Shown: positions 10,045-44,110, counted from the stretch's first letter. The stretch: DNA of 64,000 bases from Pseudomonadota bacterium (GCA_018240595.1 JAFEFL010000063.1:172701-236700); one strand, 5' to 3'. Notes: generated from the sequence alone by a model not told the origin. Program-made: numbers and translations.

Positions 10045-10896
10045 TTACTTACCGGCGCAGAGATCCGACATCTTTTCCTTGCGCGCCGCCTCGACGCTTT
10101 CCTCGCTCAGGCCATGCGAGGTCAGGATCTTGGCGTATTCGTCGGTCTTCTTGAACTCGATCAGCGCCTTGTTGAAGGCGTCGTAGAGTTCCTTGTCCTC
10201 GGGGCGGAAGTCGAAGCCGCCATAGCTGCGCACCGACTTGCCCTTGATCACCGGATCGGTGAACGGCTTGGCCTGCTCGAGGCCGCTCTGACCGTGAACC
10301 AGCTTGGCAACCGTGAGTTCCGTCGCCGCATAGGCGTCGGCGCGGCCGGTCTGCACCGTGGACGGCGCGTCGGCGTTGGCCTGGATCATGACGAGCTGCG
10401 AATCCGGAATGCCGACGCCGTGAGCAAAGTCGAGCTGGTCGGCGCCGGACACGATCGCCATCTTCGCCGACTTGTCCTTCTTGATGTCCTCGAAGCTGTG
10501 CAGCTTCTTCGGGTTGCCGGCCTTGACCAGGAAGCCCTCGCCGTAGCTGGAATTCGGCTCGGTGAAGGTCACCTGCTTGCAGCGATCCGGCAGGATGTTC
10601 ATCTCGGCGGCGACGAAGTCGTAGCGCTTGGCCTTGAGGCCGGGGATGAGCGAGCCGAACGGCGTCACCGTCCAGTTGATCTCCTTGACGCCGAGCTTGT
10701 TGAGGACCGCGATGGCGACTTCGGGCCCGATGCCCTTGGCCTTGCCGTCCGCGTCCATGAAGCCGTAGGGCACTTCGTTGGCCGTCGCGGCGCGGATGTA
10801 GCCTTGAGACTGGATTTCCTTCAGCGTCGTCGCATTCGCCGTTCCGATTCCCGCGATCGCAATGGCGAGGATGCTGCAAGCTCCGATCAAACGCAT
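10045..10896 (-). CDS. ehuB: Ectoine/hydroxyectoine ABC substrate-binding protein
   Basis: Signal peptide; ANEVPYGF, FGSLIPGLKAKRYD, YGEGFLV SBP family 3 motifs typical of EhuB. Confidence 0.88.
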   Translation of the reverse strand: MRLIGACSILAIAIAGIGTANATTLKEIQSQGYIRAATANEVPYGFMDADGKAKGIGPEVAIAVLNKLGVKEINWTVTPFGSLIPGLKAKRYDFVAAEMNILPDRCKQVTFTEPNSSYGEGFLVKAGNPKKLHSFEDIKKDKSAKMAIVSGADQLDFAHGVGIPDSQLVMIQANADAPSTVQTGRADAYAATELTVAKLVHGQSGLEQAKPFTDPVIKGKSVRSYGGFDFRPEDKELYDAFNKALIEFKKTDEYAKILTSHGLSEESVEAARKEKMSDLCAGK

Positions 10897-26925: not shown

Positions 26926-28419
26926 TCAAATGCGTGCGACGACGCTTTTCAGTTTGCAATAGCTGCGCAGGCCCGCCATGCCTTTTTCGCGGCCGAAACC
27001 CGATTTCCGGTTGCCGCCGAAGGGCACTTCGATACCACCCGCGAACCATTCATTGATGAACACTTGCCCGGCATCGACATCGCGGGCAAAGCGCAACGCC
27101 TGGGTGATATTCTTCGAATAGATGCCGGCGACCAGGGCATAAGGCGTCGCATTCGCGGCGATGAGCGCCTCGTCGGGGCCGTCGACGACCTGCACTGTCA
27201 GCACCGGCCCGAAGATTTCCTCCTGGACAAGAGGATCGGCCGTGCCGCGCGCTTCGATGATCGTCGGCTCGTAGAACCAGCCATCGGCGGTTGCCTCGGA
27301 TTTTGCGATCGCGGCACCGGTATACACACAATTGCCCGCAGCAACGGCGCGCCGAACATGACCATCAATCGTTTCGAGTTGCCGCAGCGAATTGACCGGG
27401 CCGAGATCGGGATTGGTCAGACCATGGCCGATCCGCAATTTCTTCACCCGCGCCGTGAGCCGGCTCATGAAGTCGACGGCAATGGAGCAATCGAGGATAA
27501 GGCGCGAGCCCGCCGAGCAGATCTGGCCGGCATTCTCGTAGATCGCCTCCATCACACCGTTGATGGCGACGTCCATGTCGCAGTCGGCGAGTACGACCAG
27601 CGGCGACTTGCCGCCCAATTCGAGCACCAGCCGGGTCACATGATCCGCGGCGGCGCACATGACGCGCTTGCCGGTCTCGACTGAGCCGGTGAAGGTGATG
27701 TGGTCGATGCCCGGATGGGCAACCAGCGGCGCCCCGGCCTGGGCGCCCGTCCCGGTGACCACGTTCAGCACGCCCTCGGGCAGGCCAGCCTTGTGGAGCA
27801 GTTCTGCCAGCATCAGGGCGGTGAACGGTGTCTGCTCGGCCGGCTTCGCCACGACCGTGCAGCCAGCCGCCAAGGCGGGCGCAATGCCGCGGGCGGCGGT
27901 CGATAAAGGGTAATTCCACGGAATCACCTGGGCGGCGACGCCGATCGGCTCCTCGGTGGTGAAACCGACATAGTTGCGGCCGAGCGGCAGGCTGTCGCCG
28001 TGCAGCTTGTCGGCGGCGCCGGCGTAATATTCGAAGGCGCGGGCCACGCCGCGTAGATCGCCTTCGGCCTCGGTGAGGCGCTTGCCGCTATCGAGACTTT
28101 CGACCACCGTAAAGCGATGGGCGCGCTCGCGCAGCAGCGCAGCGGCCCTCCCCAGGATGCGGCCGCGCTCGGCCGGTCCCATCTGCCGCCATGGGCCCTG
28201 CAGCGCCGATCTTGCCGCCGCAACCGCGGCATCGACATCTGCCGCGTCACCGGCCGCGAAACTGGCGAAGGCCCGGCCACGACCAGGATCGAAGCTCTCC
28301 ATCATCTGGCCAGCCATTGGCGCGACGAAACGGCCTTCGATGAAGTGCCCTTGCGGCAGCCCCTTCAGCCTGCCGGTTGTCAGGACTTCCGCGACCAATG
28401 CGTCGGCCGCGCCGCTCAT
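26926..28419 (-). CDS. Aldehyde dehydrogenase
   Basis: [40 protein letters not shown]. Confidence 0.92.
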
Positions 28420-29519
28420 GGCCGCTCGCTCGCTTTGTAGTCGGCGGTTTCCAGCCAGGCCGGGTTGATCTCGATGCCCCATCCCGGACCGCTGGGAATG
28501 TCGACCATGCCATTCCTGGCGCGCAACGGATTGCGCAGCAGGCCTCGCTCCCATGGGTAGTAGTCCTCACCCTCGATGGAGAACTCGACATAGGGCCCGG
28601 CATTGGGGAGCGCGCCCATAATGTGCAATGTGAACGTGGTGACCAGGGATTGATTGGCCGAATGCGGCGTCATCGGCAGGCCCGCCGCCGCGGCCCAGCG
28701 CGCCACCTTCAGCATGCGCGACACGCCACCGAGATAACAGACGTCCGGCTGGACCACATCGACGACCTTGTTGTCGATGATGTAGCGCCACAAGGTCAGG
28801 TCGCAATCCTGTTCGCCGCCGGTGACGTCGAGGCTCAGCGCCGCCCGGACCTCCGCCGTCCACTTGTGCTCCCAATAGGGGCACGGTTCCTCGAAATGAA
28901 CGACGCCGTAATCCTGCAACATGCCGCCGACTTCGATCGCCTTGGCCGGCGTGTAGGCGCTGTTGCCATCGACCAGCAGCCGCGCCTTGTCGCCAAGCGC
29001 CGCGCGCACCTGCGGCACGATGGCGTCGGTGCGCCCCGGCCATTCGTCGACGTCATGGCCGCATTCCTTGCCGACGCGAAACTTGAAGGCGGTGTAGCCG
29101 AATTCGCCCTGCAGGCGCTTGAGCCGTTCGGCCTCGGCTTCCGGCGTAATCTCGCCGCGCTTCATGCTCGAGGCGTAGACCGGGAACGGACGCGGCGTGC
29201 CGCCGAGCAGTTCGCAGACGCTCTTCTTTTCGATCCGCCCACGCAAATCCCACAGCGCGGTGTCGAGACCGGTGAGAGCGCGAAAGAGATACGATCCCGG
29301 AAACTTGTGCTCGCGCTCGGGGATGGTTTCGACAAGCCCGTCAATGTCGAAGGCATCAGCCCCCAGCGACCAGGGCGCGATCTGCCGATGGAAGACCGCC
29401 GCGGTGATATCGGCATTGTAGGGCGAGAATTGCCCCCAGCCCTGCGCACCACTCTCCGTCGTCACGCGGACGAAGCCAATGTAATTGTTGGAGAAGGTCT
29501 CGAGCTTCGTAATCTTCAT
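28416..29519 (-). CDS. Mandelate racemase/muconate-lactonizing enzyme family (enolase superfamily), substrate unknown
   Basis: [36 protein letters not shown] motifs. Confidence 0.88.
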
Positions 29520-29709
29520 CGGCTTCGTCACCTGATGGCACCGCGGAGCGGCGGCGCAAGCGCGCCAGCGCTCATCGTCCGCCCTTCCGCCTGTTTTTTA
29601 GAGTTGAAATGGCCTGCTCTTAAGGTCCATTCTGGTGGAATAAGAAGGCCACTCCGCCCGCGGCGGCAAAGCTGGCCCGATCGTCCAACAAGCGATGTGG
29701 GGAGTCTGA

Positions 29710-31212
29710 GTGGTCAAGCGGGCGGGAGGCGCGTTACTTCAGTCGATCGCCATCGATCGCGAGGCCGCGCACGGCCTGAGCGTCCAGATTTGCGCGCACC
29801 TGCGCGAGTTCATCCTGTCCGGCGCGCTCAAGGCGGGCGGTCGGCTGCCCTCGACCCGCACCCTGGCCAACGAACTCAAGGTCGCCCGCGCCACCATCGT
29901 CGAGTGCTTCGACCAGTTGGCCGCCGAAGGGCTGATCGAGTCGCGCGTCGGCGCCGGCACCTATGTCAGCGAAGCGCTCAAGCATGAGCGGCTGCCGGTG
30001 GTAACGCAAAAGCCCGTGGTGTCGGAAAAGAGTGCACGGCTGGCGCAATCGATGGCCTCCGCGACCAGCCGGTTCGTGCCGCGGCTGGTGCATGAGCCGC
30101 GCGCTTTCACCACCGCCATTCCCGCCTACGACGCCTTTCCGATGGCGCAATGGGCGCGGCTCTCCGGCAAGCACTGGCGCGAGGCGCGCAAGGACGTGCT
30201 CGGTTACCCCGACCCGCACGGTCACGACCTGCTGCGCAAGGCCATCGCCGATCATCTGCGTATCAACCGCGGCATCCGCTGCGACTGGCAGCAGATCTTC
30301 ATCGTCGCCGGCGCGCAGCAGGCCTTCCAGCTCATCGCCTCGACCCTGATCGATCCCGGCGACAAGGTCTGGTTCGAGGATCCCGGCGCCATTGGCGCAC
30401 GCAACAGCTTCGTCGTTTCCGGCGCCGACCTGGTGCCGGTCCGCGTCGATGACGACGGCCTCGACGTCGATGACGGCCTGCGCAAGGCGCCCGATTTCCG
30501 GCTCGCCTTCGTGACGCCGTCGCATCAGCAGCCGCTCGGCGTGAGCATGGCGCTGGAACGCCGCGTCGCCCTGCTCGGCGCCGCGGAGCAGCGCGGCGCC
30601 TGGATCATCGAGGACGACTGGGACGGCGAGTTCTGCTTCTCCGGCATGCCGATGCCGCCCTTGCAGAGCATGGATCAGGGCGGCCGCGTTATCTATGTCG
30701 GCTCGTTCTCGAAATCGCTTTTTCCGTCGCTGCGGCTCGGTTTCATCCTGGCGCCGCCGGCGCTGACCGAGCATTTTCAGACCAGCCTCGAAGCCTTCCT
30801 GCCCGGCGTGCCGACGGCGATCCAGGCGATCGTCGCCGACTTCATCGTCGAAGGCCATTTCGCCACGCATATCCGCCGCATGCGCAAGGTCTATCACGAG
30901 CGCTACCAGGCGCTGTTTCAGGGCGTTCGGCAGCATCTTGGCGATTATCTCGACATCAGGCCGACCGCCACCGGCATGCACACGGTGGCCTATCTGGCGC
31001 CGGGTCTGAATGCCGAAATGATCGCCAAACGCGCGGCCGAACGCGGCCTGACGCTGACGCCGATCGGCCGCTTCTGCATCGCGCCGAACGATCGCCAGGG
31101 CTTCGCCCTCGGCTTCAGCGGCTTCTCGACCGCGCAGATCGAGACGGCGATCCGGTCGCTCAAGGATGTCTTCGTCGATCTTGTGCCCGCGGTCCGTGCC
31201 AAATCGGCATGA
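29710..31212 (+). CDS. MocR/GabR-type PLP-dependent GntR regulator
   Basis: RLPSTRTLANELKVARATI…GAGTYV; IIEDDWDGEF; GSFSKSLFPSLRLG; divergent from the enolase-family gene. Confidence 0.92.
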   Translation: MVKRAGGALLQSIAIDREAAHGLSVQICAHLREFILSGALKAGGRLPSTRTLANELKVARATIVECFDQLAAEGLIESRVGAGTYVSEALKHERLPVVTQKPVVSEKSARLAQSMASATSRFVPRLVHEPRAFTTAIPAYDAFPMAQWARLSGKHWREARKDVLGYPDPHGHDLLRKAIADHLRINRGIRCDWQQIFIVAGAQQAFQLIASTLIDPGDKVWFEDPGAIGARNSFVVSGADLVPVRVDDDGLDVDDGLRKAPDFRLAFVTPSHQQPLGVSMALERRVALLGAAEQRGAWIIEDDWDGEFCFSGMPMPPLQSMDQGGRVIYVGSFSKSLFPSLRLGFILAPPALTEHFQTSLEAFLPGVPTAIQAIVADFIVEGHFATHIRRMRKVYHERYQALFQGVRQHLGDYLDIRPTATGMHTVAYLAPGLNAEMIAKRAAERGLTLTPIGRFCIAPNDRQGFALGFSGFSTAQIETAIRSLKDVFVDLVPAVRAKSA

Positions 31213-31324
31213 GCTTGGGCCGGCATGACCAGTACCGGCCATTGGTCCGACGCTAAGGCGAGAATGGACCTCTGCAGCCGCCGCCGGCCTGCCTAAAGTC
31301 GCGCACGCGACGGAGGACTGCCGC

Positions 31325-32935
31325 TTGGATTCGTTCGACACCATCATCATCGGCGCCGGCTCGGCCGGGTGCGTTATCGCCGGCGAACTGGCGGCCGCCG
31401 GCACGCGGAAGATCCTGGTGCTCGAGGCCGGCCCGCGCGACCGCAATCCGTGGCTGTATCTGCCGATCGGCTACGGCAAGATGTTCTACAATCCCGCCGT
31501 CAACTGGATGTACGAATCCGAGCCGGTGCCCGAGCTCGCCAACCGGCGCATCTATCAGCCGCGCGGCAAGGTCGTCGGCGGCTCGAGCGCCATCAATGCG
31601 ATGGTCTATTCGCGTGGCCAGGCCGAGGACTATGACGGCTGGGAGGCGCTGGGCAACCGCGGCTGGGGCTGGTCCGACGTGCTGCGGCTCTATCGCCACA
31701 TCGAGGATCACGACCTCGGCGCCTCACCATGGCACGGCGCGGGCGGCCCGCTGCATGTCACCGACATTGCTAGCACCGCGCATCCGCTCACGGCAGAGTT
31801 CATCAAGGCCGGCACCGAAGCCGGACTTGCTTTCAATCCGGATCTCAACGGCGCGACGACCGAAGGCGTAGGCACCTATCAGATCACGACGCGGCACGGC
31901 ATCCGCGAATCCGCGGCGCGCGCCTTCCTGCGCCCGGCTGGGCGCAGCGGCCGGGTGCGCGTCGAAGCCGAAACATTAGTGACGCGCATCCTGTTCGACG
32001 GCCGCCGCGCGGTTGGCGTCGAATGCCGCCAGCACGGCGAGGTGAAGCGCTATGGCGCCAATGCCGAGATCATCCTGTGTGGCGGTGCGATCAATTCGCC
32101 GCAGATCCTGCAGCTGTCCGGCGTCGGTCCGGGCGCGCTGCTGGCGCATCATGGCATCGCGGTGGTGGCCGACAGCCCCGCCGTCGGCCGGCATTTCCAA
32201 GATCACCTCTGTTACGATCACGTCTACAAATCGACGCGGCCGAGCCTGAACGATGATCTGCTGCCGCTCTCTGGCAAACTGCGCGTCGGATTGTCGTATT
32301 TGTTGGGCCGGCGCGGCCCGCTGTCGCTGAGCGTCAATCAGGGCGGCGGCTTCTATCGCTCGCGCCCTGGATTGGAGCGGCCGGATATCCAGCTCTACTT
32401 CTCGCCGCTCAGCTATACCAAGGCGCCGCCGCGCGTGCGCGCGCTGATGAAGCCCGACCCGTTCTCCGGTTTCTCGACCAGCGTGTCGCCGTGCCAGCCG
32501 AAGAGCCGCGGCCATGTCGCCATCCGCTCGGCCGATCCGACGGACGCGCCGCAGATCGTGCCGAACTATCTGTCGCATCCCGACGATGTCGACACGCTGC
32601 TCGCCGGCGCGCGCTTCCTCTGCGCGCTGGCGCAAACGCCGACCTTCAACGATCTCATCGAGGAAGAACTGGAGCCCGGCGCCGGCCGGCATTGCGACGC
32701 CGAGCTGCTCGACGACATCCGCCGGCGCGCTTATTCCGTCTTTCACCCCAGTGGCACCTGCCGCATGGGCACCGACCCGGCCAGCTGCGTCGTCGATCCC
32801 ACGCTGCAGGTCTACGGTGTCACCAACCTGCGCATTGCCGATGCTTCCATCTTTCCGACGATCCCGTCGGGCAACACGAATGCCCCGGCCATGATGGTTG
32901 GCGCCAAGGCCGCCGAACTGATCGCCAATGGCTGA
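31325..32935 (+). CDS. GMC oxidoreductase (choline-dehydrogenase-like)
   Basis: GGAGGA RBS + TTG; IIGAGSAGCV, RGKVVGGSSAINAM, FHPSGTCRMG, SGNTNAP. Confidence 0.9.
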   Translation: MDSFDTIIIGAGSAGCVIAGELAAAGTRKILVLEAGPRDRNPWLYLPIGYGKMFYNPAVNWMYESEPVPELANRRIYQPRGKVVGGSSAINAMVYSRGQAEDYDGWEALGNRGWGWSDVLRLYRHIEDHDLGASPWHGAGGPLHVTDIASTAHPLTAEFIKAGTEAGLAFNPDLNGATTEGVGTYQITTRHGIRESAARAFLRPAGRSGRVRVEAETLVTRILFDGRRAVGVECRQHGEVKRYGANAEIILCGGAINSPQILQLSGVGPGALLAHHGIAVVADSPAVGRHFQDHLCYDHVYKSTRPSLNDDLLPLSGKLRVGLSYLLGRRGPLSLSVNQGGGFYRSRPGLERPDIQLYFSPLSYTKAPPRVRALMKPDPFSGFSTSVSPCQPKSRGHVAIRSADPTDAPQIVPNYLSHPDDVDTLLAGARFLCALAQTPTFNDLIEEELEPGAGRHCDAELLDDIRRRAYSVFHPSGTCRMGTDPASCVVDPTLQVYGVTNLRIADASIFPTIPSGNTNAPAMMVGAKAAELIANG

Positions 32936-33228
32936 GCGAACGCGGTCGCGCGGAGGCCGCGATGCGGCTGGTGGCGGACGCAGCCATCATCGAACCCATC
33001 TCCAAACCCGATTTCCCTACTAGAAAAAAGGAACAGGGATCTCGCCGCAAATGACCGCTGAAGGTCACAATGGCGAGTTGAATAGGCAGCAAATGCAGTT
33101 GCTTACGATGCCACTCCCTAGTCGATAGAACAGGGAAGTTCTCGAGCCATTCTCAGGAATTCAACTGCGGTATCGGGCATTAACGTCAGCTCGACGGCGC
33201 CTTAGGACATACTGCAGTTTGAGCAGCC

Positions 33229-34686
33229 CTATGAGACATTGCCGCGTTTGACGACGCCCGGTTTCACCCAATCAGGGATAGGACTGGTGTGTTTTCTTCC
33301 TTGTGTCATTTCGCGCCATTCCGCGCGCGCGGCATTCAACAATTCAGGAGATCGCGCAAGCGCCAGACCGGTCGCCGCCAGCGCCTTTGCCGCGTGAAGC
33401 ATCGCCTTATGGGCAGCGCCGCTCCGGCCCTGTGCCACCACCTGCCAGGTGTGGGGATTGGTGCCGATCGCCCAGGCCGGCGCCCAGCATTGCGCCGTCG
33501 GCGTCACCCAACTGACGTCACCGACATCGGTTGACCCGGCGCGAAAATGTGACTTGCCTTCGAAAACTCGCAATCCACGGTGCAGGACGTCCGAGCCGTC
33601 CTTCTTCACGGCGCAAAAAACATCGTCCTTGATCTGATAAAGGCGGATACTGCTGCTGATCGCCTCTTCAGTGAACGTCGCCTGGATCGCGCGAGCGGCC
33701 GCGACATCTGCGTCATCGAAGGGGACCGGGCCTAGCGCCACCATGACCTCATGCATCGCGGTTTCGAGTGTCAGGTTCGGCAGCAGATTGGTGGCCGCCG
33801 TGTCGAAGACTGCTTCCACCTCGGTCTCGGTCATCATCGCGGCGCCGCGCGCGACCTTCTCGACCCGCGCCGCCAAAGCCAAGGCCTGCTGCATTTCCGG
33901 CGCCCGGATCATGTACATTACTTCCGCATGGGCCTGCACGACGTTCGGCGCCCGCCCGCCGGCGTCGGTGATGGCATAGTGGACCCTGCAGTCCACGGGC
34001 ATGTGCTCGCGCAGGAAATTGACACCTACATTCATCAGTTCGACGGCGTCGAGCGCGGACCGTCCGAGATGCGCCGCATTCGATGCGTGCGCGGCAACAC
34101 CTTTGAAACGATAGAGGTGCTGCACGATGGCAAGATTGGTGGTGGAGCGGACGGCGTTGAACGGCGCCGGATGCCACGTCAAGGCCGCGTCGACATCGTC
34201 GAACAGCCCCGCGCGCACCAGGAATGTCTTTCCCGAGCCGCCCTCCTCGGCGGGGCAGCCGTAATAACGCGTCGTGCCCGCAAGACCGCTATCGGCGAGA
34301 TAGCGCGCGAGCGTCGTTGCCGCCAACAGCGAACCGACACCCAGCAGATTGTGCCCGCACCCGTGCCCACTACCTCCCGGTGCCGCCGGCAGACGCTCGG
34401 CCACGCCCGCTTTCTGGCTCATGCCCGCGAGAGCGTCGAACTCGCCGAGGAAGGCGATGATCGGACTGCCGTGCCCCGCCTCGGCAACGAAAGCGGTCTC
34501 CATCCCGGCCACGCCTCGCCTGACATCGAAGCCGCTCAGCTCCAGCCGCTCCGCCAGTAACGCGCTCGAGTGATGCTCCTCGAATTTTAGCTCGGCTAAA
34601 TCCCAGATCCTGTCGCTTAGGCGTGCATATTCCGCGCCATCCCTCTCGATGGCCGACGCGATGGCGGAAATCTCGATTTGATCCAT
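33229..34686 (-). CDS. M20 amidohydrolase, AbgB-like
   Basis: GEFDAL, GHGCGHNLLG, CPAEEGGSGK, LTWHP, GSTDVGDVSW. Confidence 0.9.
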   Translation of the reverse strand: MDQIEISAIASAIERDGAEYARLSDRIWDLAELKFEEHHSSALLAERLELSGFDVRRGVAGMETAFVAEAGHGSPIIAFLGEFDALAGMSQKAGVAERLPAAPGGSGHGCGHNLLGVGSLLAATTLARYLADSGLAGTTRYYGCPAEEGGSGKTFLVRAGLFDDVDAALTWHPAPFNAVRSTTNLAIVQHLYRFKGVAAHASNAAHLGRSALDAVELMNVGVNFLREHMPVDCRVHYAITDAGGRAPNVVQAHAEVMYMIRAPEMQQALALAARVEKVARGAAMMTETEVEAVFDTAATNLLPNLTLETAMHEVMVALGPVPFDDADVAAARAIQATFTEEAISSSIRLYQIKDDVFCAVKKDGSDVLHRGLRVFEGKSHFRAGSTDVGDVSWVTPTAQCWAPAWAIGTNPHTWQVVAQGRSGAAHKAMLHAAKALAATGLALARSPELLNAARAEWREMTQGRKHTSPIPDWVKPGVVKRGNVS

Positions 34687-34779
34687 TGGTCTATGGCCGG
34701 ACATTGCGCCCGCAAGGACGGGCGGTTGCAGGCCACGGCGGCACGAACCGCCGCGGTCGATTGCGCGGGACTACGCGCC

Positions 34780-36324
34780 TCACGGCGTGAGCGACACTTC
34801 CCAGAGCCTGGCATTGCCCTCCCAAACGGGGTCGCCGACGAGCTTGCTCGTCGAGGCCCAGACGATCGACATATCGTAGAGAAAGACGCCAGGCATTTCC
34901 TTCAGCATCAGCTCGTGGAACTGGTCGAAGATCGCCTGCCGCTTGGCAGGATCCGCCTCCTCGATGGCGGCGTTCATGAGTGCGATCGCTTTCGGATCGT
35001 CCCACATCAGCGACGCGTTCTTGTTCTTGTCGCCGACGAAGAACTCATACAACAGAGCCGGGTCGAGACGCGGCGCGATGGTCTGCGATATGATCTGATA
35101 TTTACCGGAACGGCGGCGATCCACCTGCGTCGCGAAATCGAGCACCTCGATTTTGACGTTCAAACCAGCCTGCTGCATCATCGCCTGGGCAATCACTGCC
35201 ATCTGGAAGCTCGGCAGATTACTGCGCTTGTTGGCGATGATCGTGATCGGCTCGCTCTTGTAGCCAGCCGCCGCGAGTTCCTTCTTGGCCGCGGCGATGT
35301 CGTAGGGCAGCCGACGCTTCTGCACGTCGTCGTAATAGCTCGAGCGCTGCGGGATCGCCGAACCGTTCGGCTCGCCGGTGCCGTTGGACGCCGCTGCCGT
35401 CAGTTGCGGCAGGTCGAGCGACATGGCGATCGCGCGCCGCACGCCCGGCTTGGACAACACCGGATCGCGGGTCTGCATGTAAAGAAGGTTCTTGCCGCTG
35501 CTGTGACCGACGATCACGCGGATCTTCTTGTTTCGTTTCAGCTCGGTGATCAGATCCGACGGAACTTCGGCGAGATCGAGAACGCCCGACTCGAGACCCG
35601 CTTTTACCGTCGCCGCGTCCGGGATATCCATGAATTTGATGCCGTCAACGAGCGGACGCTTGGAGCCCACCGCGCCATCCGGCTTGCCGTCATTATCGGG
35701 CGAGACATAACCGTCGAACTTCGCCAGCCTGACGTACTGACCTTTCTTCCATTCCGCCCATTTGAACGGGCCGGTGCCGATAGGCTCCTTGAAGGTGCCG
35801 TCGGCCGCGACCGAATCCGGTGAAATGATGCCGCTGAAGCCACATTCTGCCCGCGCCATCAGCGCCAGAAAGATGCCCGACGGCTTCTCAAGCGACATCG
35901 TGACGGTATCGCTCCCGACCGCCTTGACATCGGTGATGTGGACCGCGCCCTTGCCGTTGAAGTCCCGCAGACACGTCCATTTTGTCGCCGGGTCGAGATA
36001 GCGACGCCAGTTCCAGACCACGTCGTCGGCTGTCAGCACCTTGCCATTGTGGAAGTGGACGCCCTGACGCAGGTGGAAGGTATAGGTGCGCCGGTCGCTA
36101 GACAGGTCTACGCTCTTGGCCAGCAGCGGCTTGACCTGGCCGCCGGCGGTGTAACCAACCAAACCTTCGACGATATGCAGCATCACATGATCAGTGGTGC
36201 CGTCGCGGTTGACGCCCGGGATGTTGCTGCGCAGGTCCTGGCTTTGCGCCACGACGAGATCGCGGGCGCAGGCGGTGCCCGTAAGCGCCAGCGAGGCGAT
36301 GCCCGCGATGAGGATCGTCTTCAT
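34780..36324 (-). CDS. Peptide/nickel-type ABC substrate-binding protein (family 5)
   Basis: Signal peptide; YTFHLRQGVHFHNG; PIGTGPFK. Confidence 0.9.
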   Translation of the reverse strand: MKTILIAGIASLALTGTACARDLVVAQSQDLRSNIPGVNRDGTTDHVMLHIVEGLVGYTAGGQVKPLLAKSVDLSSDRRTYTFHLRQGVHFHNGKVLTADDVVWNWRRYLDPATKWTCLRDFNGKGAVHITDVKAVGSDTVTMSLEKPSGIFLALMARAECGFSGIISPDSVAADGTFKEPIGTGPFKWAEWKKGQYVRLAKFDGYVSPDNDGKPDGAVGSKRPLVDGIKFMDIPDAATVKAGLESGVLDLAEVPSDLITELKRNKKIRVIVGHSSGKNLLYMQTRDPVLSKPGVRRAIAMSLDLPQLTAAASNGTGEPNGSAIPQRSSYYDDVQKRRLPYDIAAAKKELAAAGYKSEPITIIANKRSNLPSFQMAVIAQAMMQQAGLNVKIEVLDFATQVDRRRSGKYQIISQTIAPRLDPALLYEFFVGDKNKNASLMWDDPKAIALMNAAIEEADPAKRQAIFDQFHELMLKEMPGVFLYDMSIVWASTSKLVGDPVWEGNARLWEVSLTP

Positions 36325-36346
36325 GCCCTTCCTCTCCTGTACTTTG

Positions 36347-37192
36347 TCAGAATGAATCCCAACAGGCGCGGGCAATCCGGCCCATCGTCTCAAGCGCCAC
36401 CGTGTAGCCAGGCGTGCCGTCCGGCATGACCTGCGGCACGTCGTCGGTGTAGACGGCGATGATATAAAGCGGGGCGTTGTCGCGATAGACGATGCCCGCA
36501 TCCATCCGGCCGCGCTTGCCGGTGCCACTCTTGTGCGCCACCAGCGTGCCGAAGGGCAGCCGCGAAGGCAACGCGTAGCGCAGGATCTGGCTCTTCAGCG
36601 TCCGCAGCGCATAGTCACAGTGAGTCGGCGAGCAGCCGAGTCTCTCGGCGACGGCAGGATCGTCCTGCGCGTCGAGGATGGCCTGGAGCAGCCGCACCTG
36701 ATCGGCTGCGGTCGTCGTTGTGACGTCCGCCAGCCTGTGATCAGGCGGCAGCGCGATCGGCGGAATAAGGAAGCGGTGATGCGTTCCCGTGAGGCCGATC
36801 GATCGACAATAGGCGTTCACCTCGTCAAGCGTCAGGCGCTCGAACACCATTTTGGTGCAGACATTGTCGCTGAGGACCATCATGCCGGTGATGGCGTCGC
36901 GCAACGAGATGACAATGCCGGGAGTGAGGTAGCGAAACATTCCGCTCGCGACCTCCTCCGCCAGCCTGCGCTCATAGACGATCTTTTCCTCGAGATCGAT
37001 TTGGCCGCGCAGGGCCGCATTCAGTGCGGCCATCATGATCGACGTCTTGCGGGTGCTCGCCGACGGCGTCTCCTCGTCCGCGCCACGGGCAAAGGTCTCG
37101 CCGGTCACGAGATTGCGGATCATGTAGCGCGTCACGAAAGGCTGTGCGTCGCAGATCGCTTCGAGCTGCGCCGGCAGCGCTTTCGCGTTCAT
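36347..37192 (-). CDS. Cytoplasmic serine hydrolase with class A beta-lactamase fold
   Basis: SxxK (ASTRK), SDN (VLSDNV), KSG (HKSGT); no signal peptide; omega-loop Glu equivalent not seen. Confidence 0.85.
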   Translation of the reverse strand: MNAKALPAQLEAICDAQPFVTRYMIRNLVTGETFARGADEETPSASTRKTSIMMAALNAALRGQIDLEEKIVYERRLAEEVASGMFRYLTPGIVISLRDAITGMMVLSDNVCTKMVFERLTLDEVNAYCRSIGLTGTHHRFLIPPIALPPDHRLADVTTTTAADQVRLLQAILDAQDDPAVAERLGCSPTHCDYALRTLKSQILRYALPSRLPFGTLVAHKSGTGKRGRMDAGIVYRDNAPLYIIAVYTDDVPQVMPDGTPGYTVALETMGRIARACWDSF

Positions 37193-37205
37193 AAATCCCT
37201 TCACG

Positions 37206-38834
37206 TCAATTCTCCAGGCGCCATTTGAGTCTCACGCCGCCCTTGTCGTTCTGCTCAAGGACCGGAATCGCCGACAGAAGCTGGCGCGTATAGGGCTCCT
37301 TCGGACTGTCAAAGATCGTGTCGCGATCGCCCTCCTCGATGACGCGGCCGTCCTGCATCACGACGACGCGGTCGGCTACCTGCTCGACGACGCCGAGGTC
37401 GTGGCTGATGAACAGACAGGAGAAGCCGTAGCGCTTCTGCAGGCGGGAAAAGAGGTCGAGGATCTGCGCCCTGACGGTGACGTCGAGCGCCGAGACGGGT
37501 TCGTCGGCAATCAGGAATTTGGGACGCCGTACGATAGCCCGAGCGATGGCCACGCGCTGGCGCTGGCCGCCGGACAGTTCGTGCGGATAGCGGCTGACGT
37601 AGGTGGCCTCAATGCCGACTTCCTGGAGGGTTTCGGACGCACGCGCTCTCTTTGCTTGCGCATCGAGCGCCGGCTCCAGGCGCAGCGCCTCTTCCACCAG
37701 CGCAAGTGTCGTCATGCGCGGGTCGAGCGAAGAGTACGGATCCTGGAACACCATCTGACAATTCAGCCGGTATTGCTGCCAGTCGGCATCGCGGGAGCGC
37801 CCCTGGAAAAGGATGGCTCCCTCGCGTTGTGCTACCAGACCGGCGATCGTGCGCCCGAGCGTCGTCTTTCCGGAGCCCGAGCCGCCCACAAGGGCGACGA
37901 CTTCGCCCTCACGGATGTCAATGCTGATGGCATTGAGCGCGCGCTTGCGCTTCGTCTTCCTGAAGGGGGAGCGGCGTGTAGCGTATTCGACGCTCAGCTC
38001 GCGCACCGAGACAATCGTCTTCGCCGACGGTCCGAAGCTGCGGTTCTGGCGGCGAAACGGCAGCGACGATAAGAGCTTCATTGTGTAAGGATGCCGCGGC
38101 GCCTCCAGGATTCTCTCGGTCGTCCCTGCCTCCACCGCGACGCCCTTCTCCATCACCAAGATGCGGTTGGTGTAACGGGCGACCATCGGCAGGTCGTGGC
38201 TGATGAGCAGGACTGCGGTGCCCTCGGCCCGCGTCAGGTCGACCATCAGCCCCATCACCTCACGCTGAACGACGGCATCCAGCGCGGTCGTCGGCTCGTC
38301 TGCGATGAGCAGCGCCGGCTTCAGCAGCATGACCGACGCGAGCATGATGCGCTGGCGCATGCCGCCGGAGAACTCATGCGGATAGGCCGCCAGGGCGTTT
38401 TCGACGTCGCGGATGCCGACCCGCCCCAGCATGTCGAGGATGCGCGACTTCCGCTCCGCCGCGCTCAGGCGCGTGTGTACGATGAGCCCTTCCTCAAGCT
38501 GACGGCCGACGGTCATCGACGGGTTCAGCGATGTCATCGGCTCCTGGAAGACGACGCCGATTTCCGCGCCGCGCAGAGCGCGAAGATCGGCGTTGCCCAT
38601 CGTCAACACGTCGCGCCCCTTGTAGACGACGCTTCCGCCGGCGATCGAGATGGCGGGTGGCAACAGCGACACGATGGCGCGAGTCGCCAGCGTCTTGCCC
38701 GATCCACTCTCGCCGACAATGCCGAATATCTCGCCTGGCGCGACGTCAAAGCTAACTTTGTCGACGACGGTCGCGCCCGTACTGCCGATCTTGAGCGATA
38801 GGTCACGCACCTCGATGAGTCGGTCCCTGGTCAT
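37206..38834 (-). CDS. Fused double-ATPase of peptide ABC transporter
   Basis: Two Walker A motifs (GESGSGKT, GGSGSGKT) and two signature motifs (FSGGMRQR, LSGGQRQR). Confidence 0.92.
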   Translation of the reverse strand: MTRDRLIEVRDLSLKIGSTGATVVDKVSFDVAPGEIFGIVGESGSGKTLATRAIVSLLPPAISIAGGSVVYKGRDVLTMGNADLRALRGAEIGVVFQEPMTSLNPSMTVGRQLEEGLIVHTRLSAAERKSRILDMLGRVGIRDVENALAAYPHEFSGGMRQRIMLASVMLLKPALLIADEPTTALDAVVQREVMGLMVDLTRAEGTAVLLISHDLPMVARYTNRILVMEKGVAVEAGTTERILEAPRHPYTMKLLSSLPFRRQNRSFGPSAKTIVSVRELSVEYATRRSPFRKTKRKRALNAISIDIREGEVVALVGGSGSGKTTLGRTIAGLVAQREGAILFQGRSRDADWQQYRLNCQMVFQDPYSSLDPRMTTLALVEEALRLEPALDAQAKRARASETLQEVGIEATYVSRYPHELSGGQRQRVAIARAIVRRPKFLIADEPVSALDVTVRAQILDLFSRLQKRYGFSCLFISHDLGVVEQVADRVVVMQDGRVIEEGDRDTIFDSPKEPYTRQLLSAIPVLEQNDKGGVRLKWRLEN

Positions 38835-39649
38835 CGTGTGCCCCGCATACGCGGATCGAGCCGATCGCGGAGCGCGTCGCCCAAGAGGTTGATGCCAAGC
38901 AGCGTCAGCGCGATACACAGACCTGGGAATAGGCCGAGCCACACGGCTTGTTCGATGAACGGCCGGCCGGCCGCCAGCATGTTGCCCCAGGTCGGTGCCG
39001 GCGGCGGCACGCCGAGCCCTAGGAAACTCAGCGCGCTTTCCGACAGGATCGCCCAGCCGAACATCGACGTCGCCAAAACCGTGATCGGCGCGAGGCAGTT
39101 CGGCAGGATGTGACGCAACAAGGTATAAAGCGCGCCGTTACCCATGACGCGCGAGGCTTCGACGAACTCCCGTTCGCGCAAGGAAAGGACGACGACGCGC
39201 ACCACGCGCGCCATCGACGGCGTATACGCAATGCCGAGGGCGAAGATGATGCCATATTCATTGGCGCCGAATACGGCGAGGAGCCCCAGCGCGAGCAGTA
39301 TGCCGGGAAAAGCAAGTAACGTATTGTTGAGCGCAACGACGACTCGATCAATCCAGCCGCGCGAATAGCCGCCAAGCAATCCGATCGCGGTGCCGCAGGC
39401 CGTGGCAAAACCGACGGTCAGAGTGCCGATCCAGATGCTGGCGCGCGCCCCCACCATGATGCGGCTGAGAACGTCGCGGCCGAATTCGTCGGTGCCGAGC
39501 AGATGATCGACGCTGGGCGGCGCAAGCCGCGCGGTGAAACTCAGCGCCATCGGGTCATAGGGGGTCCAGAACAGCCCCACCAGCGCGATCACAAGCAACA
39601 CCGCTATGAGAAAGGCGCCAATCATGGCATTGAGGCCGGGCATTTTCAT
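38831..39649 (-). CDS. Peptide ABC permease (DppC-like)
   Basis: HLLGTDEFGRDVLSRI; HILPN; ESALSFLGLG. Confidence 0.92.
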   Translation of the reverse strand: MKMPGLNAMIGAFLIAVLLVIALVGLFWTPYDPMALSFTARLAPPSVDHLLGTDEFGRDVLSRIMVGARASIWIGTLTVGFATACGTAIGLLGGYSRGWIDRVVVALNNTLLAFPGILLALGLLAVFGANEYGIIFALGIAYTPSMARVVRVVVLSLREREFVEASRVMGNGALYTLLRHILPNCLAPITVLATSMFGWAILSESALSFLGLGVPPPAPTWGNMLAAGRPFIEQAVWLGLFPGLCIALTLLGINLLGDALRDRLDPRMRGTR

Positions 39650-40590
39650 TCGGCGACCACGCGCGGGTCGAAGATCGGATACAGCAGATCGACGAAGAGA
39701 TTGATGACGACGTAGCTGACCGCCACCAGAAGCAGGCAGCCCTGAATGACCGGGTAGTCACGAGCCAGAATGCTGTCGACCATCAGCCGGCCGAGCCCGG
39801 GCACGGTGAACACCGTCTCAATCACCGCGATGCCGCCAAGCAGATGGCCGAGGATCAAACCGATCATCGTCCAGGTCGGGCCGAAGGCGTTGCGGAAGAC
39901 GTGTTTCCACAGCACGGCGGCTTCGGACAATCCCTTCGCCCGCGCATGCGTTACATAATCGAGCCGCAGGACTTCGAGGGTCGAGGCGCGCGACATGCGG
40001 ATCAGCGCGCCGGTTTCATGAATTACCAACGTCATGACCGGCAGCACAAGATAGATGAGCCCGGCCGCGATATTGTCACGGATCGATACGTAGCCGAGGA
40101 CCGGAAGCCAACCGAGCTTCAAACCGAACAGCAGCAGAAGAAGAAGGCCGAGCCAGAAGGTCGGAATCGACAGCAGTACAGTCGCCGATCCGACTAGGAC
40201 GAGGTCGGCCAGACTGTTCTGGCGCCAGGCGGCGATGACGCCGGCAGGCACGGCAAGGCAACCCGCCAGGGCGACCGCCAGAACCACAATCTGCGCGCTG
40301 ACCAGGAAGCGCTCCGTGACAAGCGCGAACACAGGCTCGCCGTTGACGATAGACCGGCCGAAATCGCCGCGCAGGACGTTTCCGGTCCAGATCACGAATT
40401 GCTGGACGATCGATTTGTCGAGGCCGAGATCGACACGCAGCGCCGCAATCTGATCGGGCTGGGCGATGTCACCCAGCATCAGCGCAGCCGGATCGCCCGG
40501 GATTAGGCGGACCAACGAGAATACGGCAATCGACACCAGCACCAATGTCGGCACCGCCATCACCAGGCGATTCAGGGTAAATCTCAGCAT
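39646..40590 (-). CDS. Peptide ABC permease (DppB-like)
   Basis: LIPGDPA; ARAKGLSE; VIETVFTVPGLGRL; RDYPVIQG. Confidence 0.92.
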   Translation of the reverse strand: MLRFTLNRLVMAVPTLVLVSIAVFSLVRLIPGDPAALMLGDIAQPDQIAALRVDLGLDKSIVQQFVIWTGNVLRGDFGRSIVNGEPVFALVTERFLVSAQIVVLAVALAGCLAVPAGVIAAWRQNSLADLVLVGSATVLLSIPTFWLGLLLLLLFGLKLGWLPVLGYVSIRDNIAAGLIYLVLPVMTLVIHETGALIRMSRASTLEVLRLDYVTHARAKGLSEAAVLWKHVFRNAFGPTWTMIGLILGHLLGGIAVIETVFTVPGLGRLMVDSILARDYPVIQGCLLLVAVSYVVINLFVDLLYPIFDPRVVAE

Positions 40591-40666
40591 CGCTTGCCCA
40601 TTGATCGATATGCGTGCCGATCGAGCCTTCGGTCGCCCACATCCGTTCTATGACAGTTCCGTTATT

Positions 40667-40686
40667 ATCGCGCAATATTATGCGAT
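40667..40686. promoter_or_regulatory. Possible LysR-type box upstream of the peptide-ABC operon
   Basis: ATCGC-N10-GCGAT inverted repeat containing T-N11-A in an AT-rich spacer. Confidence 0.35.
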
Positions 40687-40785
40687 TTTGTCATTGACCA
40701 ATGCGAGATGGTCAACGGCGGCGGTTTAGCCGGGAGCACTGGCCACCGACCGGATCACACTGCGCGCCACCGGGGCCGGGCTGCT

Positions 40786-41688
40786 TTACGATTTTTGCGT
40801 TTCGGCCAGCTGCCGTTTGAAGGCTTCGGTCAGACCGACGGCGGCAAGGGACAGCGGAATGCCGTTCGGCCGCGCAAGGCCGAATGTCTGCACGACGCGC
40901 GGAGCGAACCGCCGGTGCACGATCGGCAAGTGACGGTAGAGATTGGCGTAGAAGCTGCTGATGATTGCGACTCCCAACCCCTTGGCAACATAGGCGCAGG
41001 CCGAACTGTTGGTATGCGTCTCTATCTTGATCAGTTGTTTAACGCCGGCGCGCTTGAAGGACTGGTCGAGCTGCATCCGGTGCGGCTTTTGTCGGCCAAT
41101 CAGGATAAGCGGCACGTCGCGCAGATGTTTCGCCGTGACCTCCTTTTCGGCCGCCAGAGGATGGCGTTTCGGAATTACGCACACGCTTTCGCCGGTGACC
41201 ACCTGCTCGATCTCGATGCCGGGACCAATGTCGCCGTCGATACGCAGGAAACCGAAGTCGATGACGCGCTGCTCGATGAGCCTGGCAATCGTCGCCGTCG
41301 ATTCGAAGAACGTTTCGATCCGAACCCCTGGAAAACGTTTCACGTAGTCCGACATCATCGCCGGGGCAAAGTTCTCCCACAGACTGCCTGGCAAACCGAT
41401 GCGAACGACGTCCGGGCCGGTTGCGCCGCTGCGAAGGTCCTCGACGCGCCCGTTCATCCTTTCCACCGCCAGCAGTATGTTCTCGGCGTCGCGGGCGAGG
41501 AGCCTCGCTTCAGGGGTCGCAATCAGCCTACCCTTCTCCCGGGAAAAGAGTGACAAACCGATGTCGCTCTCCAGGTGCTGCAGCATTCGGCTGATCCCGG
41601 ACTGACTGACGCCTAGAGCTTTCGCGGCTGCAATGGTGGAACCCGTCGCCAGAAGCGTGCGCAGGACTTCCAGCTGTTTGGTGTTCAT
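40786..41688 (-). CDS. LysR-family transcriptional regulator
   Basis: MNTKQLEVLR…STIAAAKALGVSQSGISRML…LFSREKGRLIATPEA. Confidence 0.93.
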   Translation of the reverse strand: MNTKQLEVLRTLLATGSTIAAAKALGVSQSGISRMLQHLESDIGLSLFSREKGRLIATPEARLLARDAENILLAVERMNGRVEDLRSGATGPDVVRIGLPGSLWENFAPAMMSDYVKRFPGVRIETFFESTATIARLIEQRVIDFGFLRIDGDIGPGIEIEQVVTGESVCVIPKRHPLAAEKEVTAKHLRDVPLILIGRQKPHRMQLDQSFKRAGVKQLIKIETHTNSSACAYVAKGLGVAIISSFYANLYRHLPIVHRRFAPRVVQTFGLARPNGIPLSLAAVGLTEAFKRQLAETQKS

Positions 41689-42228
41689 CAGTAGCTCCGC
41701 TTCTCCACGCTAGATCAGCTCAGTGACCAAGCTTATGCCGATTGAGATTCAATCTCCGCCTCACGAGTGCAACAAGTGCGCCAAGTTATTGCACCGCAAG
41801 AATTCTAGTGAAAGGCGGCGTCGGCTTTATCGGATCGCAACTCCGCGATCTTCTCCTTACCTATTACGCTCTCATACCTGCATAGACTGTTTCCTCACGG
41901 GCTCCAGACGGACTTTATTTCGAAGAGATGCCCAGTTAGGTCGCGCACGCCTTATTCGCTGAGACCGCGTAATATCCATAATGGAGTATTTTGCCTCCTA
42001 TGGGGAATTCTGACCTAATACCGCCAGTTCTGAATTTTCCTTGGCTCAAAATGGCCCAACGCGGAGTGTCGCTTGCGGGAAGCTCGGCTTCGGGTCATTG
42101 AGCGCCGCTCCGTCTCTTCCATGTGCCCGCGGAGACTTTCCGGATGCGGCTAGGTCCGCGGAAAGCGGGCGTTTCGCTCCGACCCGGGAAATCTCTGACT
42201 TGAGATGTGTTGACATGAGAGGAATGCG

Positions 42229-42304
42229 TGGTGGGCCCGGCAGGACTCGAACCTGCAACCAGACCGTTATGAGCGGTCGGCTCTAACCATTGAGCTACGG
42301 GCCC
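42229..42304 (-). tRNA. tRNA-Ile2 (anticodon CAU, lysidine type) with encoded CCA
   Basis: Reverse complement GGGCCCGTAGCTCAATGGTTAGAGCCGACCGCTCATAACGGTCTGGTTGCAGGTTCGAGTCCTGCCGGGCCCACCA; cloverleaf; paired G1-C72 excludes fMet; Ile2 versus elongator Met assigned by resemblance only. Confidence 0.9.
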
Positions 42305-42534
42305 GTCGCCGCCGGCAATCGCCCGCGGGAAACGCACTCATGTAACAAAGCGTGGCCCCCCCACGCAAATGCCGCGGCCCGCAGCGCGCCGCGGATCGGG
42401 GTCGGCGTCTCGCGACGTGCCCCGGTGGCCATGACCTGGAAATGACTCGCTGCTGTGTGGCGCGTCGCGCACGCCCCATGAAATTTCGAGTCGCAAGGCT
42501 TTGGCGTTTTCCCCGACTCAGTTATGCACAAGCA

Positions 42535-43299
42535 ATGCTGCCGATCTTTCGAATCATTTCAGTGGGCGGCGTATCCCTCGCCATTTCAATTCTCGCCCTG
42601 GCGCTCATTCCGCCGGGCGGCACGCATTTGCTGCTGACACCACGCGAGATCGCCGCGCGAGGGGTCATGATCGAGCGCGGTCAGCATCCGGAATGGCGGC
42701 AATTCATGATCCAGGCGGCGCTGCGCCGCGCCGATGAGCTCGAACGGCTGCGCAGCCTCCCCTCAGCCGCGGTGCAACTGCCGGAGGCCGCGGCGCCGGC
42801 CGAGGACAAGGCCACAGCGGCCGAATCGGCGAAGGAAGAACAGACCGCCGGTTTGCAATCCGCAGCCCAGCCGGCCACGACCGGAGAAGTCACGGGCTCA
42901 ATCAACAACGCGAACAACGACAATCCGGGCGCCACCATCCCGATCGATATCGGCGAAGCGTCATCGACCGAGTTGCCGGTCGAGCCCGCCGAGGAACGAC
43001 CGCCGGTCAGCGGTGTGCGGGACTCGCGCGTGCCGGAGCCGGATGTCGCAGCGCCTCCGAGCGTCCCGGCGGTCGAGACGCGGGAGTCCGTTCTGCCGCC
43101 GGCCAAGCCGAAGATCCGGGTGATGCAGCGCCGCCCGCGTCACAAGAGTGTGCGGCCCGCTCCGCAGGCGGCGGCCAAGCCTCAGGTGCCACCGCCGTTC
43201 AGCCTGATCGCGGCGATCTTCAGCAGCCTCAGCCGTCCCGAGACCTCGGCGGCGCCTAACCAGCAGACGGCGGCCAATGGCCCCGGCAGCGCGCGGTAG
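42535..43299 (+). CDS. Hypothetical membrane-anchored Pro/Ala-rich protein
   Basis: N-terminal TM segment, EHPEWRQF-like block, long low-complexity tail. Confidence 0.7.
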   Translation: MLPIFRIISVGGVSLAISILALALIPPGGTHLLLTPREIAARGVMIERGQHPEWRQFMIQAALRRADELERLRSLPSAAVQLPEAAAPAEDKATAAESAKEEQTAGLQSAAQPATTGEVTGSINNANNDNPGATIPIDIGEASSTELPVEPAEERPPVSGVRDSRVPEPDVAAPPSVPAVETRESVLPPAKPKIRVMQRRPRHKSVRPAPQAAAKPQVPPPFSLIAAIFSSLSRPETSAAPNQQTAANGPGSAR

Positions 43300-43369: not shown

Positions 43370-44005
43370 TCAGTGCGAACTGACGAGGGCCGCGTCGCCG
43401 GTGTCGACGCGATCGGCGCGCGCCTCGCTCGGGCCGGGCTCGTCGTCGTCTTTGACCGCCTGGCCCGTAGTCGCATCGGCCGCGGCCAAGCTCGCTGTCG
43501 TTTCGGCATGGGCGGCGATCGCAGCCTCCTTGCCGGGCGACAAGGCCGCGGTGGTCTCCGCGGTCGGCATCGCCATGCCCTTGCGCTTGGCGACATAGTA
43601 ATAGCCGCCGGCATAGTAGCGCACGGCGCGGTCGATATTGCCGCTGGCCGCCCGATAAGCACCGGCGAGGTACTTGACCGCATAAGTCATGTTCGTGTCG
43701 GCATCGAGCAGGCCGGCAGCCGTACCTTGATAGCCCATCGCCCGCGCCGTTCCGAGACGGATCTGCATCAGGCCGTAATTGCCCTTGCTGATGACGCGCG
43801 GATTGCCGCGGCTTTCACGATGAATCACACGGCGCACGAGCGCTTCCGGCACATTGTGCGCGGCGGCGTGCTTGGCGATCAGCGCGTCGAGACCATTGCC
43901 ATTGCCATCGATGTTCTTGCTGCGGCTTTGCGCCATCACCGACGTCGTCGTGAAGGCGGCGAGGATGAGCAGAGCGAACGAAAATCGGTGGCAAACGCTG
44001 CGCAT
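43370..44005 (-). CDS. Lytic transglycosylase (SLT domain) protein
   Basis: Signal peptide; VIHRESRGNP catalytic Glu; YGLMQI; YLAGAY. Confidence 0.88.
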   Translation of the reverse strand: MRSVCHRFSFALLILAAFTTTSVMAQSRSKNIDGNGNGLDALIAKHAAAHNVPEALVRRVIHRESRGNPRVISKGNYGLMQIRLGTARAMGYQGTAAGLLDADTNMTYAVKYLAGAYRAASGNIDRAVRYYAGGYYYVAKRKGMAMPTAETTAALSPGKEAAIAAHAETTASLAAADATTGQAVKDDDEPGPSEARADRVDTGDAALVSSH

Positions 44006-44096
44006 GACCTCGTCTCCGTTGTTGTTGGGGGAAGGCGCCTTTTGGCCACGGACTCGGGCAACTTTGTGGCCGGATTCCACGCCTTCGGGCATGTCT

Positions 44097-44110
44097 TTGA
44101 TCCAGATCAA
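44097..44110. promoter_or_regulatory. Perfect FNR/FixK box
   Basis: TTGAT-CCAG-ATCAA, centred about 65 bp upstream of the ATG at 44169. Confidence 0.75.

Follow-up and report, generated by a model that had tools for sequence, protein, structure and literature searches.

A LysR-headed peptide-importer cassette with a cytoplasmic class A beta-lactamase-fold hydrolase and an AbgB-like amidohydrolase in a Pseudomonadota bacterium

Introduction

Class A beta-lactamases are thought to have descended from peptidases resembling the penicillin-binding proteins (PBPs), and PBP-A has been called a missing link. What, then, does a protein with this fold do when its gene lies inside an operon for nutrient uptake? 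We have analysed a 64,000-nucleotide (nt) stretch of DNA from a Pseudomonadota bacterium (GCA_018240595.1 JAFEFL010000063.1:172701-236700), referred to as a whole as the window, in which positions 33229-41688 of the minus strand carry seven open reading frames (ORFs) head to tail. A preliminary description, made from the sequence, had read this span as an operon for a peptide ATP-binding cassette (ABC) importer combined with a hydrolase of class A beta-lactamase fold and an AbgB-like amidohydrolase. This reading is borne out by the Pfam assignments and by the ORF ends, which match the earlier coordinates exactly, with the stop of the M20 gene at 33229 and the start of the LysR gene at 41688. 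We suggest, with moderate confidence, that these genes form a self-contained cassette under LysR control that serves the catabolic import and two-step hydrolysis of a small peptide-like amide, and not resistance. Its parts are as follows, in the direction of transcription.

40786..41688, minus strand: LysR-family transcriptional regulator, 300 amino acids (Pfam HTH_1 and LysR_substrate)
40648..40704, minus strand: conserved block in the LysR-permease spacer, a putative promoter/operator (intergenic alignment of the window and six Rhizobiaceae loci)
39646..40590, minus strand: DppB-type ABC permease, 314 amino acids (BPD_transp_1 and BPD_transp_1_N)
38831..39649, minus strand: DppC-type ABC permease, 272 amino acids (BPD_transp_1 and OppC_N)
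37206..38834, minus strand: fused double ATPase of DppD-DppF type, 542 amino acids (two ABC_tran and two oligo_HPY stretches)
36347..37192, minus strand: serine hydrolase of class A beta-lactamase fold, predicted to be cytoplasmic, 281 amino acids (STRK, SDN and KSG; no equivalent of Glu166 or Asn170)
34780..36324, minus strand: periplasmic family-5 solute-binding protein, 514 amino acids (SBP_bac_5, 281.6 bits; Sec signal peptide)
33229..34704, minus strand: AbgB-like M20D amidohydrolase, 491 amino acids, no signal peptide (M20_dimer; TIGR01891, 252 bits)

Results

The hydrolase keeps the acylation motifs and lacks the deacylation glutamate

The hydrolase matches Pfam PF13354 (Beta-lactamase2) with 172 bits against a cut-off of 22, over profile positions 3-214 of 214, and it carries all three motifs of the class A enzymes: S46-T-R-K49, S108-D-N110 and K221-S-G223. 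Its score on NCBIfam NF033103 (bla_class_A), on the other hand, is 65.6 bits, far under the 200-bit cut-off, which leaves it outside that class.

The preliminary description had quoted the omega-loop segment HHRFLIPPIALPPDHRLAD, which corresponds to residues 138-156, and had stated that it holds no equivalent of Glu166 or Asn170. With the class A beta-lactamase of the same genome as numbering reference, an hhalign profile alignment places I143 opposite Glu166 and A147 opposite Asn170 of its RIEPELN segment. A phmmer alignment to PBP-A differs in the omega-loop register by three residues. However, since Asp, Glu and Asn are wholly missing from residues 138-150 (HHRFLIPPIALPP), the absence of both residues is independent of the alignment register. 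Nor is there any conserved acidic column in the omega loop across 33 diverse clade members (28-73% identity), on which the clade alignment and the AF2 model were based.

Residues S46, R48, K49, D109, K221 and G223 are invariant in these 33 members. In the closer set of 83 aligned sequences, i.e., the window hydrolase and 82 orthologues, S108 and N110 are invariant in addition to these six, and so is the loop segment HRFLIPP.A..PDH. By this pattern, the catalytic residues of the hydrolase are under constraint. Motif 3, by contrast with its fixed lysine and second glycine, varies in the middle position: it is KGG in 73 of the 83 sequences and KSG in only 10, the window copy included. As most orthologues thus have no hydroxyl in motif 3, an atypical substrate is argued for.

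The AF2 model has a mean pLDDT of 97 and its first fold helix begins at residue 3. No leader peptide was found in any of the 33 diverse family members, and the window protein has no signal peptide either. That is, the export that characterises class A beta-lactamases is absent here, and the earlier statements on the three motifs, on the omega loop and on the missing signal peptide have all held. Judged from these features, the protein belongs to the class A superfamily as a PBP-A-like, cytoplasmic form and is not a beta-lactamase.

Its nearest solved relatives agree with this placement. A sequence-only search of the PDB with the hydrolase returned PBP-A first (E 6e-12), together with 4ewf and BlaB. 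Among the fold neighbours of the AF2 model, the structural-genomics entry 4ewf is the best, followed by PBP-A (2j7v and 2j9o, TM ~0.8, with ~0.82 for 2j7v) and BlaB (2wuq, TM ~0.8), and the ordinary class A enzymes rank after these. The ESM Atlas search gave only clusters named 'serine hydrolase' or 'beta-lactamase'.

The genome does have a true class A beta-lactamase, encoded on another contig (C23:9238-10002; L089:1321-2280, plus strand). This protein of 319 amino acids has a twin-arginine leader, the motifs STFK, SDN, RIEPELN and KTG, and a score of 312.8 bits on NF033103. A role of the window hydrolase as a resistance beta-lactamase is ruled out by the lack of a leader, the lack of Glu166 and Asn170, the score of 65.6 bits and the presence of this separate true enzyme. 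On the same grounds the earlier claim of a catabolic rather than a resistance function is upheld, as far as its second half is concerned.

The seven genes are kept together in Rhizobiaceae

Hundreds of close relatives of the hydrolase exist, with no more specific annotation than 'serine hydrolase' or 'class A beta-lactamase-related serine hydrolase', and almost all come from Rhizobium, Sinorhizobium/Ensifer, Shinella, Agrobacterium and Neorhizobium. The gene is found on 87 plasmid records. In a tblastn census, all seven genes were collinear, with 65-88% identity to those of the window, in 81 of 82 Rhizobiaceae loci, so the conservation of the neighbourhood, which had been proposed as a check, is confirmed. 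For instance, plasmid pRL11 of R. johnstonii 3841 (RL_RS32195 to RL_RS32165) and a Shinella plasmid have the same seven genes in the same order with differing flanks. As this order is kept in nearly all loci while the flanks differ, the genes should work together.

The distribution is narrow. All the 80 named loci from the genome collection belong to Rhizobiaceae or to unclassified 'Rhizobiales bacterium' isolates, and apart from a single further family of the same order (3 of 15), a sample of 400 genomes from the phylum yielded no orthologues. Our literature search on the hydrolase family or the cassette found no experimental work.

Importer, regulator and binding protein

The transport genes have every part expected of a Dpp/Opp-type (PepT) importer: an exported SBP_bac_5 protein, two BPD_transp_1 permeases, and an ATPase with the oligo_HPY tail. 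The genes are tightly packed. The two permease genes overlap by 4 nt, and the DppC-type permease and ATPase genes share a 4-nt ATGA start/stop overlap, which places the corrected ATPase start (ATG) at 38834 and gives a protein of the same length as in R. johnstonii. From the ATPase stop, a 13-nt gap leads to the hydrolase, whose corrected start is the ATG at 37192 after an AAGGGA ribosome-binding site, and a 22-nt gap follows between the hydrolase stop and the solute-binding protein (SBP) gene, with its start likewise corrected to the ATG at 36324. These junctions confirm that the hydrolase gene lies between the ATPase and SBP genes, as had been described.

The LysR gene lies upstream of the importer genes and is transcribed in the same direction. 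Its product is 65-72% identical across the sampled Rhizobiaceae loci; the top NCBIfam match is PRK11013, at 150 bits and under its cut-off. In the spacer between the LysR and first permease genes, the 57-nt block at 40648-40704 is the sole strongly conserved part in the seven aligned loci, and contains the invariant GCATAATATTGCG at 40671-40683, between ATGA...CATAG. From this conservation, we infer that the block is a regulated promoter with a putative LysR site. The promoter and terminator scans gave results at chance level, and the Rfam search found no riboswitch and no family other than tRNA.

The SBP begins with the Sec leader MKTILIAGIASLALTGTACA. Its nearest solved relatives are AgaA (6e-40, 140 bits) and AapF (3e-36), followed by GsiB/YliB, DppA, OppA, MppA and NikA; judged by these scores, the matches to AgaA and AapF are too weak for orthology. 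We take AgaA to bind agropinic acid, a lactam, while AapF presumably binds HEHEAA, an acetamide derived from ethanolamine. With these ligands, the nearest solved relatives of the SBP would be binders of small non-standard amides, not of ordinary peptides.

The AbgB-like amidohydrolase

The M20D enzyme is 49% identical to E. coli AbgB over 476 aligned residues, at full length (E 4e-159), and scores 252 bits on TIGR01891 against a cut-off of 153.75, which justifies the label 'AbgB-like' used earlier. AbgB hydrolyses an N-aroyl-glutamate amide. Among solved structures, HmrA and the Xaa-Arg dipeptidase come nearest to the M20D enzyme. The genome encodes a further AbgB-like M20D protein on another contig (C74:221225-222601), a paralogue with 52% identity to the cassette copy.

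The wider hydrolase clade

A representative search with the hydrolase gave 59 clusters at E up to 1e-30. Among 41 metagenome loci with hydrolases 36-50% identical to that of the window, none has an AbgB homologue as a neighbour, and ~9 have Dpp-type or ABC parts nearby. Recurring neighbours of these distant hydrolases are hydantoinases A and B (oxoprolinase-type), proteins of the dihydrodipicolinate synthase (DHDPS) family, pyridoxal phosphate (PLP) enzymes and an SBP of family 5; across five loci (L105, L124, L126, L131 and L161), genes for hydantoinase A/B, DHDPS-family and PLP enzymes recur next to distant hydrolases of the STRK clade. In one case, such an STRK-clade hydrolase adjoins a gene for a tungsten-type aldehyde:ferredoxin oxidoreductase.

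In the bacterium's own GTDB family, one of 150 genomes has a hydrolase homologue, with 40% identity (L092, G099:C1:17000-36999, hydrolase 9630-10505). It adjoins genes for AtuA-like and DUF4387 proteins, a GntR/FCD regulator, a D-2-hydroxyacid dehydrogenase and an amino-acid-type ABC system. Overall, going by such neighbourhoods, the clade looks like one of cytoplasmic catabolic hydrolases with varied substrates, in which the association with a Dpp importer and AbgB appears specific to the present orthologous group. The preliminary description had counted it against its own reading if the hydrolase were usually found without these partners. The answer is divided: within the orthologous group the partners are always present, while the clade members of 36-50% identity mostly do without them.

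Origin in this genome and flanking genes

No DNA match to the cassette was found in three congeners. In G048, the best assembled of the three, the left flank up to 32935 matches with 86% identity and the right flank from 42221 with 78%, and the two flanks are ~60 kb apart. The variable segment that holds the cassette is bounded by a tRNA gene lying outside the operon, close to where the G048 homology resumes.

42229..42304, minus strand: tRNA with CAT anticodon (ARAGORN; Rfam tRNA, 70.4 bits)

The G+C content of the segment is slightly under that of its surroundings. No integrase was found, nor does the far side of the cassette bear a direct repeat of the tRNA end; the lack of this repeat leaves a classical integrase-type island unsupported. 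That is, the locus is a variable tRNA-side segment, not a proven island. In a quick tree, the window hydrolase and a 92% identical metagenome protein form a branch of their own, in a polytomy with Rhizobiaceae clades, and no donor is indicated. The cassette is accessory in this genome and was probably gained by transfer.

Between the cassette and the edges of the variable segment lie 32936-33228 and 41689-42228. The left neighbours at 28416-32935, which comprise an enolase-superfamily (MR/MLE) gene, a MocR-type GntR/aminotransferase regulator gene and a GMC oxidoreductase gene, are not part of the cassette, because they are kept at 86% DNA identity in G048. Just past the tRNA, an ORF of 315 amino acids without Pfam match lies at 42352-43299 on the plus strand, and on the opposite strand follows a gene for an SLT-domain lytic transglycosylase (43370-44110, minus strand).

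Discussion

Proposed function

Based on the above analyses, the cassette may work as follows. The family-5 SBP would capture a small peptide-like amide in the periplasm, and the Dpp-type permeases with the fused ATPase would import it. In the cytoplasm, the serine hydrolase would attack a single amide (or ester) bond by forming an acyl-enzyme on Ser46, with Lys49, Ser108 and Lys221 as a likely proton relay; having no general base of the Glu166 type, it should behave as a PBP-A-type peptidase and not as a beta-lactamase. The AbgB-like M20D metalloenzyme would then split what is left, an N-acyl-amino acid or a dipeptide-like product, into ordinary metabolites, if the two steps do run in this order. 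As the cassette contains no further catabolic genes, its products should be common metabolites. The bond cut first would most likely be one that ordinary L-peptidases cannot cut, e.g., that of a C-terminal D-amino acid. Since a D-amino acid at this bond is suggested by analogy with PBP-A, we offer it tentatively.

With respect to the earlier proposal of import followed by two-step hydrolysis, the parts which stand are that the genes act together and that they do not serve resistance. The substrates then listed, i.e., a D-amino-acid peptide, an acyl-amino acid, a beta-lactam-like natural product or a xenobiotic, are not distinguished by our data.

Several points weigh against catabolic import with two-step hydrolysis as drawn here. 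E. coli AbgB works together with AbgA, and no AbgA orthologue was found in the cassette or the genome, the best genome match being a generic M20D protein elsewhere with 30% identity. M20D enzymes are generally L-specific, so that a D-amino-acid product of the first step would need another route. PBPs and class A enzymes use the hydroxyl of motif 3 to bind the terminal carboxylate of beta-lactams and of D-Ala-D-Ala; the KGG orthologues, which have no such hydroxyl in their sequences, weaken a classical DD-carboxypeptidase reading. The D151-H152 pair, which does not vary among the orthologues, might provide an unrecognised deacylation base. In addition, the differing neighbours of the distant members indicate that no one fixed function holds for the whole clade, and the substrate of the cassette itself is one that we infer.

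Alternative explanations

We have also considered whether the cassette takes up and breaks down, or detoxifies, a peptide-like beta-lactam natural product of the tabtoxin or monobactam type. The peptide importer would take the compound in; its ring would then be opened in the cytoplasm by the lactamase-fold enzyme, with the AbgB-like enzyme stripping off an acyl or aminoacyl side chain. This would suit the class A fold with its intact acylation set (S46, K49, S108-D-N and K221), the peptide type of the importer, and the soil and rhizosphere genera that carry the cassette, as producers of such compounds inhabit soil and rhizosphere. We nevertheless consider it unlikely, given a hydrolase without Glu166 or Asn170, the loss of the motif 3 Ser/Thr in most orthologues and an NCBIfam class A score of 65.6 against a cut-off of 200; in PBP-A, the lack of the glutamate means very slow deacylation of the penicilloyl-enzyme (PMC11189452). 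A ring other than a beta-lactam, such as an opine-like gamma/delta lactam or a diketopiperazine, could also be opened by the serine hydrolase, with its linear product cleaved by the AbgB-like enzyme. Two hydrolases do suit ring opening followed by splitting of the product, the best solved relative of the SBP is AgaA with its presumed lactam ligand, and distant clade members adjoin genes of the hydantoinase A/B (oxoprolinase) type. Yet the hydantoinase neighbours belong to other loci and not to this cassette, the 140-bit match to AgaA is not one between orthologues, and we know of no lactamase-fold enzyme characterised on such rings, which makes this explanation improbable as well.

The imported compound might instead be an ester-linked conjugate, with the hydrolase as its esterase or thioesterase, which is in our opinion highly unlikely. 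Esters and thioesters are often accepted by the serine acyl-enzyme hydrolases of this superfamily, those of PBP-A type being usually assayed on thioesters, and an atypical substrate would fit the missing motif 3 hydroxyl of most orthologues; however, transporter and second enzyme alike belong to the peptide/amide type, and the hydrolase has no match to any lipase or esterase family. We give only a very slight chance to a regulatory role, in which the lactamase-fold protein would serve not catabolism but LysR, whose effector it would produce, degrade or sense. This idea draws on BlaB, which is among the closest solved relatives both by sequence and by fold and works with a LysR-type partner, and on the LysR gene that heads the cassette. 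Against it, three genes lie between LysR and the hydrolase gene, and the latter is packed tightly behind the ATPase gene (13 nt) and ahead of the SBP gene (22 nt), an arrangement by which the protein would be made in step with the importer, and its catalytic residues are all invariant.

We thus keep to catabolic import and two-step hydrolysis of a small peptide-like amide. A bolder extension of this proposal is possible, though we find it rather doubtful: the cytoplasmic STRK clade would consist of catabolic amidases for imported compounds, the cassette would be the first complete PBP-A-like nutritional pathway for a D-peptide or a lactam ring, and a base in the invariant loop (D151/H152), or else R48, would replace Glu166 in deacylation.

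Significance

The hydrolase family is already present in Pfam and bears a generic NCBI name, and importer operons with built-in peptidases are also known. What is new, as far as our literature search shows, is a cytoplasmic enzyme of class A fold as a hydrolase embedded among importer genes and paired with a stand-alone AbgB. If the proposal is true, this would be a third lifestyle for the class A fold, cytoplasmic and linked to nutrient import. If the substrate turns out to be ordinary, the cassette would be one more accessory catabolic operon. The strict seven-gene synteny and the presence of the cassette in the well-studied R. johnstonii 3841 offer a clean genetic handle, by which the function is directly testable, and once the substrate is identified, both a stand-alone AbgB homologue and a protein widely annotated as 'serine hydrolase' would have a function. 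Annotation pipelines could then more easily avoid resistance calls on such genes; one Shinella record carries the Gene Ontology term 'beta-lactam antibiotic catabolic process'.

Comparison with known systems

The closest characterised protein is PBP-A (Tll2115 of Thermosynechococcus elongatus, 2j7v). Like the hydrolase, it has the class A fold without the catalytic glutamate, motifs of the SxxK/SDN/KTG type, a hydrophobic residue at the place of Glu166, and a D-x-G after motif 3. On the other hand, their identity is ~24%, and the invariant Arg within motif 1 (STRK) sets the hydrolase clade apart. PBP-A is a DD-carboxypeptidase, for which the missing omega-loop glutamate has been described as the key difference from beta-lactamases; adding a glutamate gave a gain of only 90-fold, still five orders of magnitude under a natural beta-lactamase (PMC11189452). 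It is held in the membrane by an N-terminal anchor, and its target, peptidoglycan, lies outside the cytoplasm (PMC11189452), whereas the hydrolase has neither leader nor anchor and is encoded within an importer operon.

With the class A beta-lactamases (TEM, SHV and PenL), the hydrolase has in common the fold (TM 0.75-0.84) and the acylation residues Ser70, Lys73, Ser130, Asn132 and Lys234; it differs from them in the absence of Glu166, Asn170 and an export signal and in its sub-cut-off class A score. BlaB of Streptomyces cacaoi (2wuq), a non-beta-lactamase associated with a LysR-type regulator, is likewise a class A-like protein on the cytoplasmic side and a neighbour by sequence and fold. 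However, its role is regulatory, it has no transporter or AbgB partner, and the sequence match covers the N-terminal half only (residues 7-142).

At the level of the whole cassette, the E. coli abgR-abgA-abgB-abgT locus for p-aminobenzoyl-glutamate use similarly combines a LysR regulator, an importer and an AbgB-type M20D enzyme. The cassette differs in having no AbgA, in an ABC importer that replaces AbgT, and in the added serine hydrolase, and the resemblance between the two LysR proteins is remote (24% over 131 residues). In the E. coli ddpXABCDF and B. subtilis dpp operons, a Dpp-type importer is encoded together with a cytoplasmic enzyme for D-amino-acid peptides, namely a VanX-type zinc enzyme and an M55 D-aminopeptidase, with folds unrelated to that of the hydrolase. 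The cassette would follow the same logic as these operons, with D-peptides as possible substrates.

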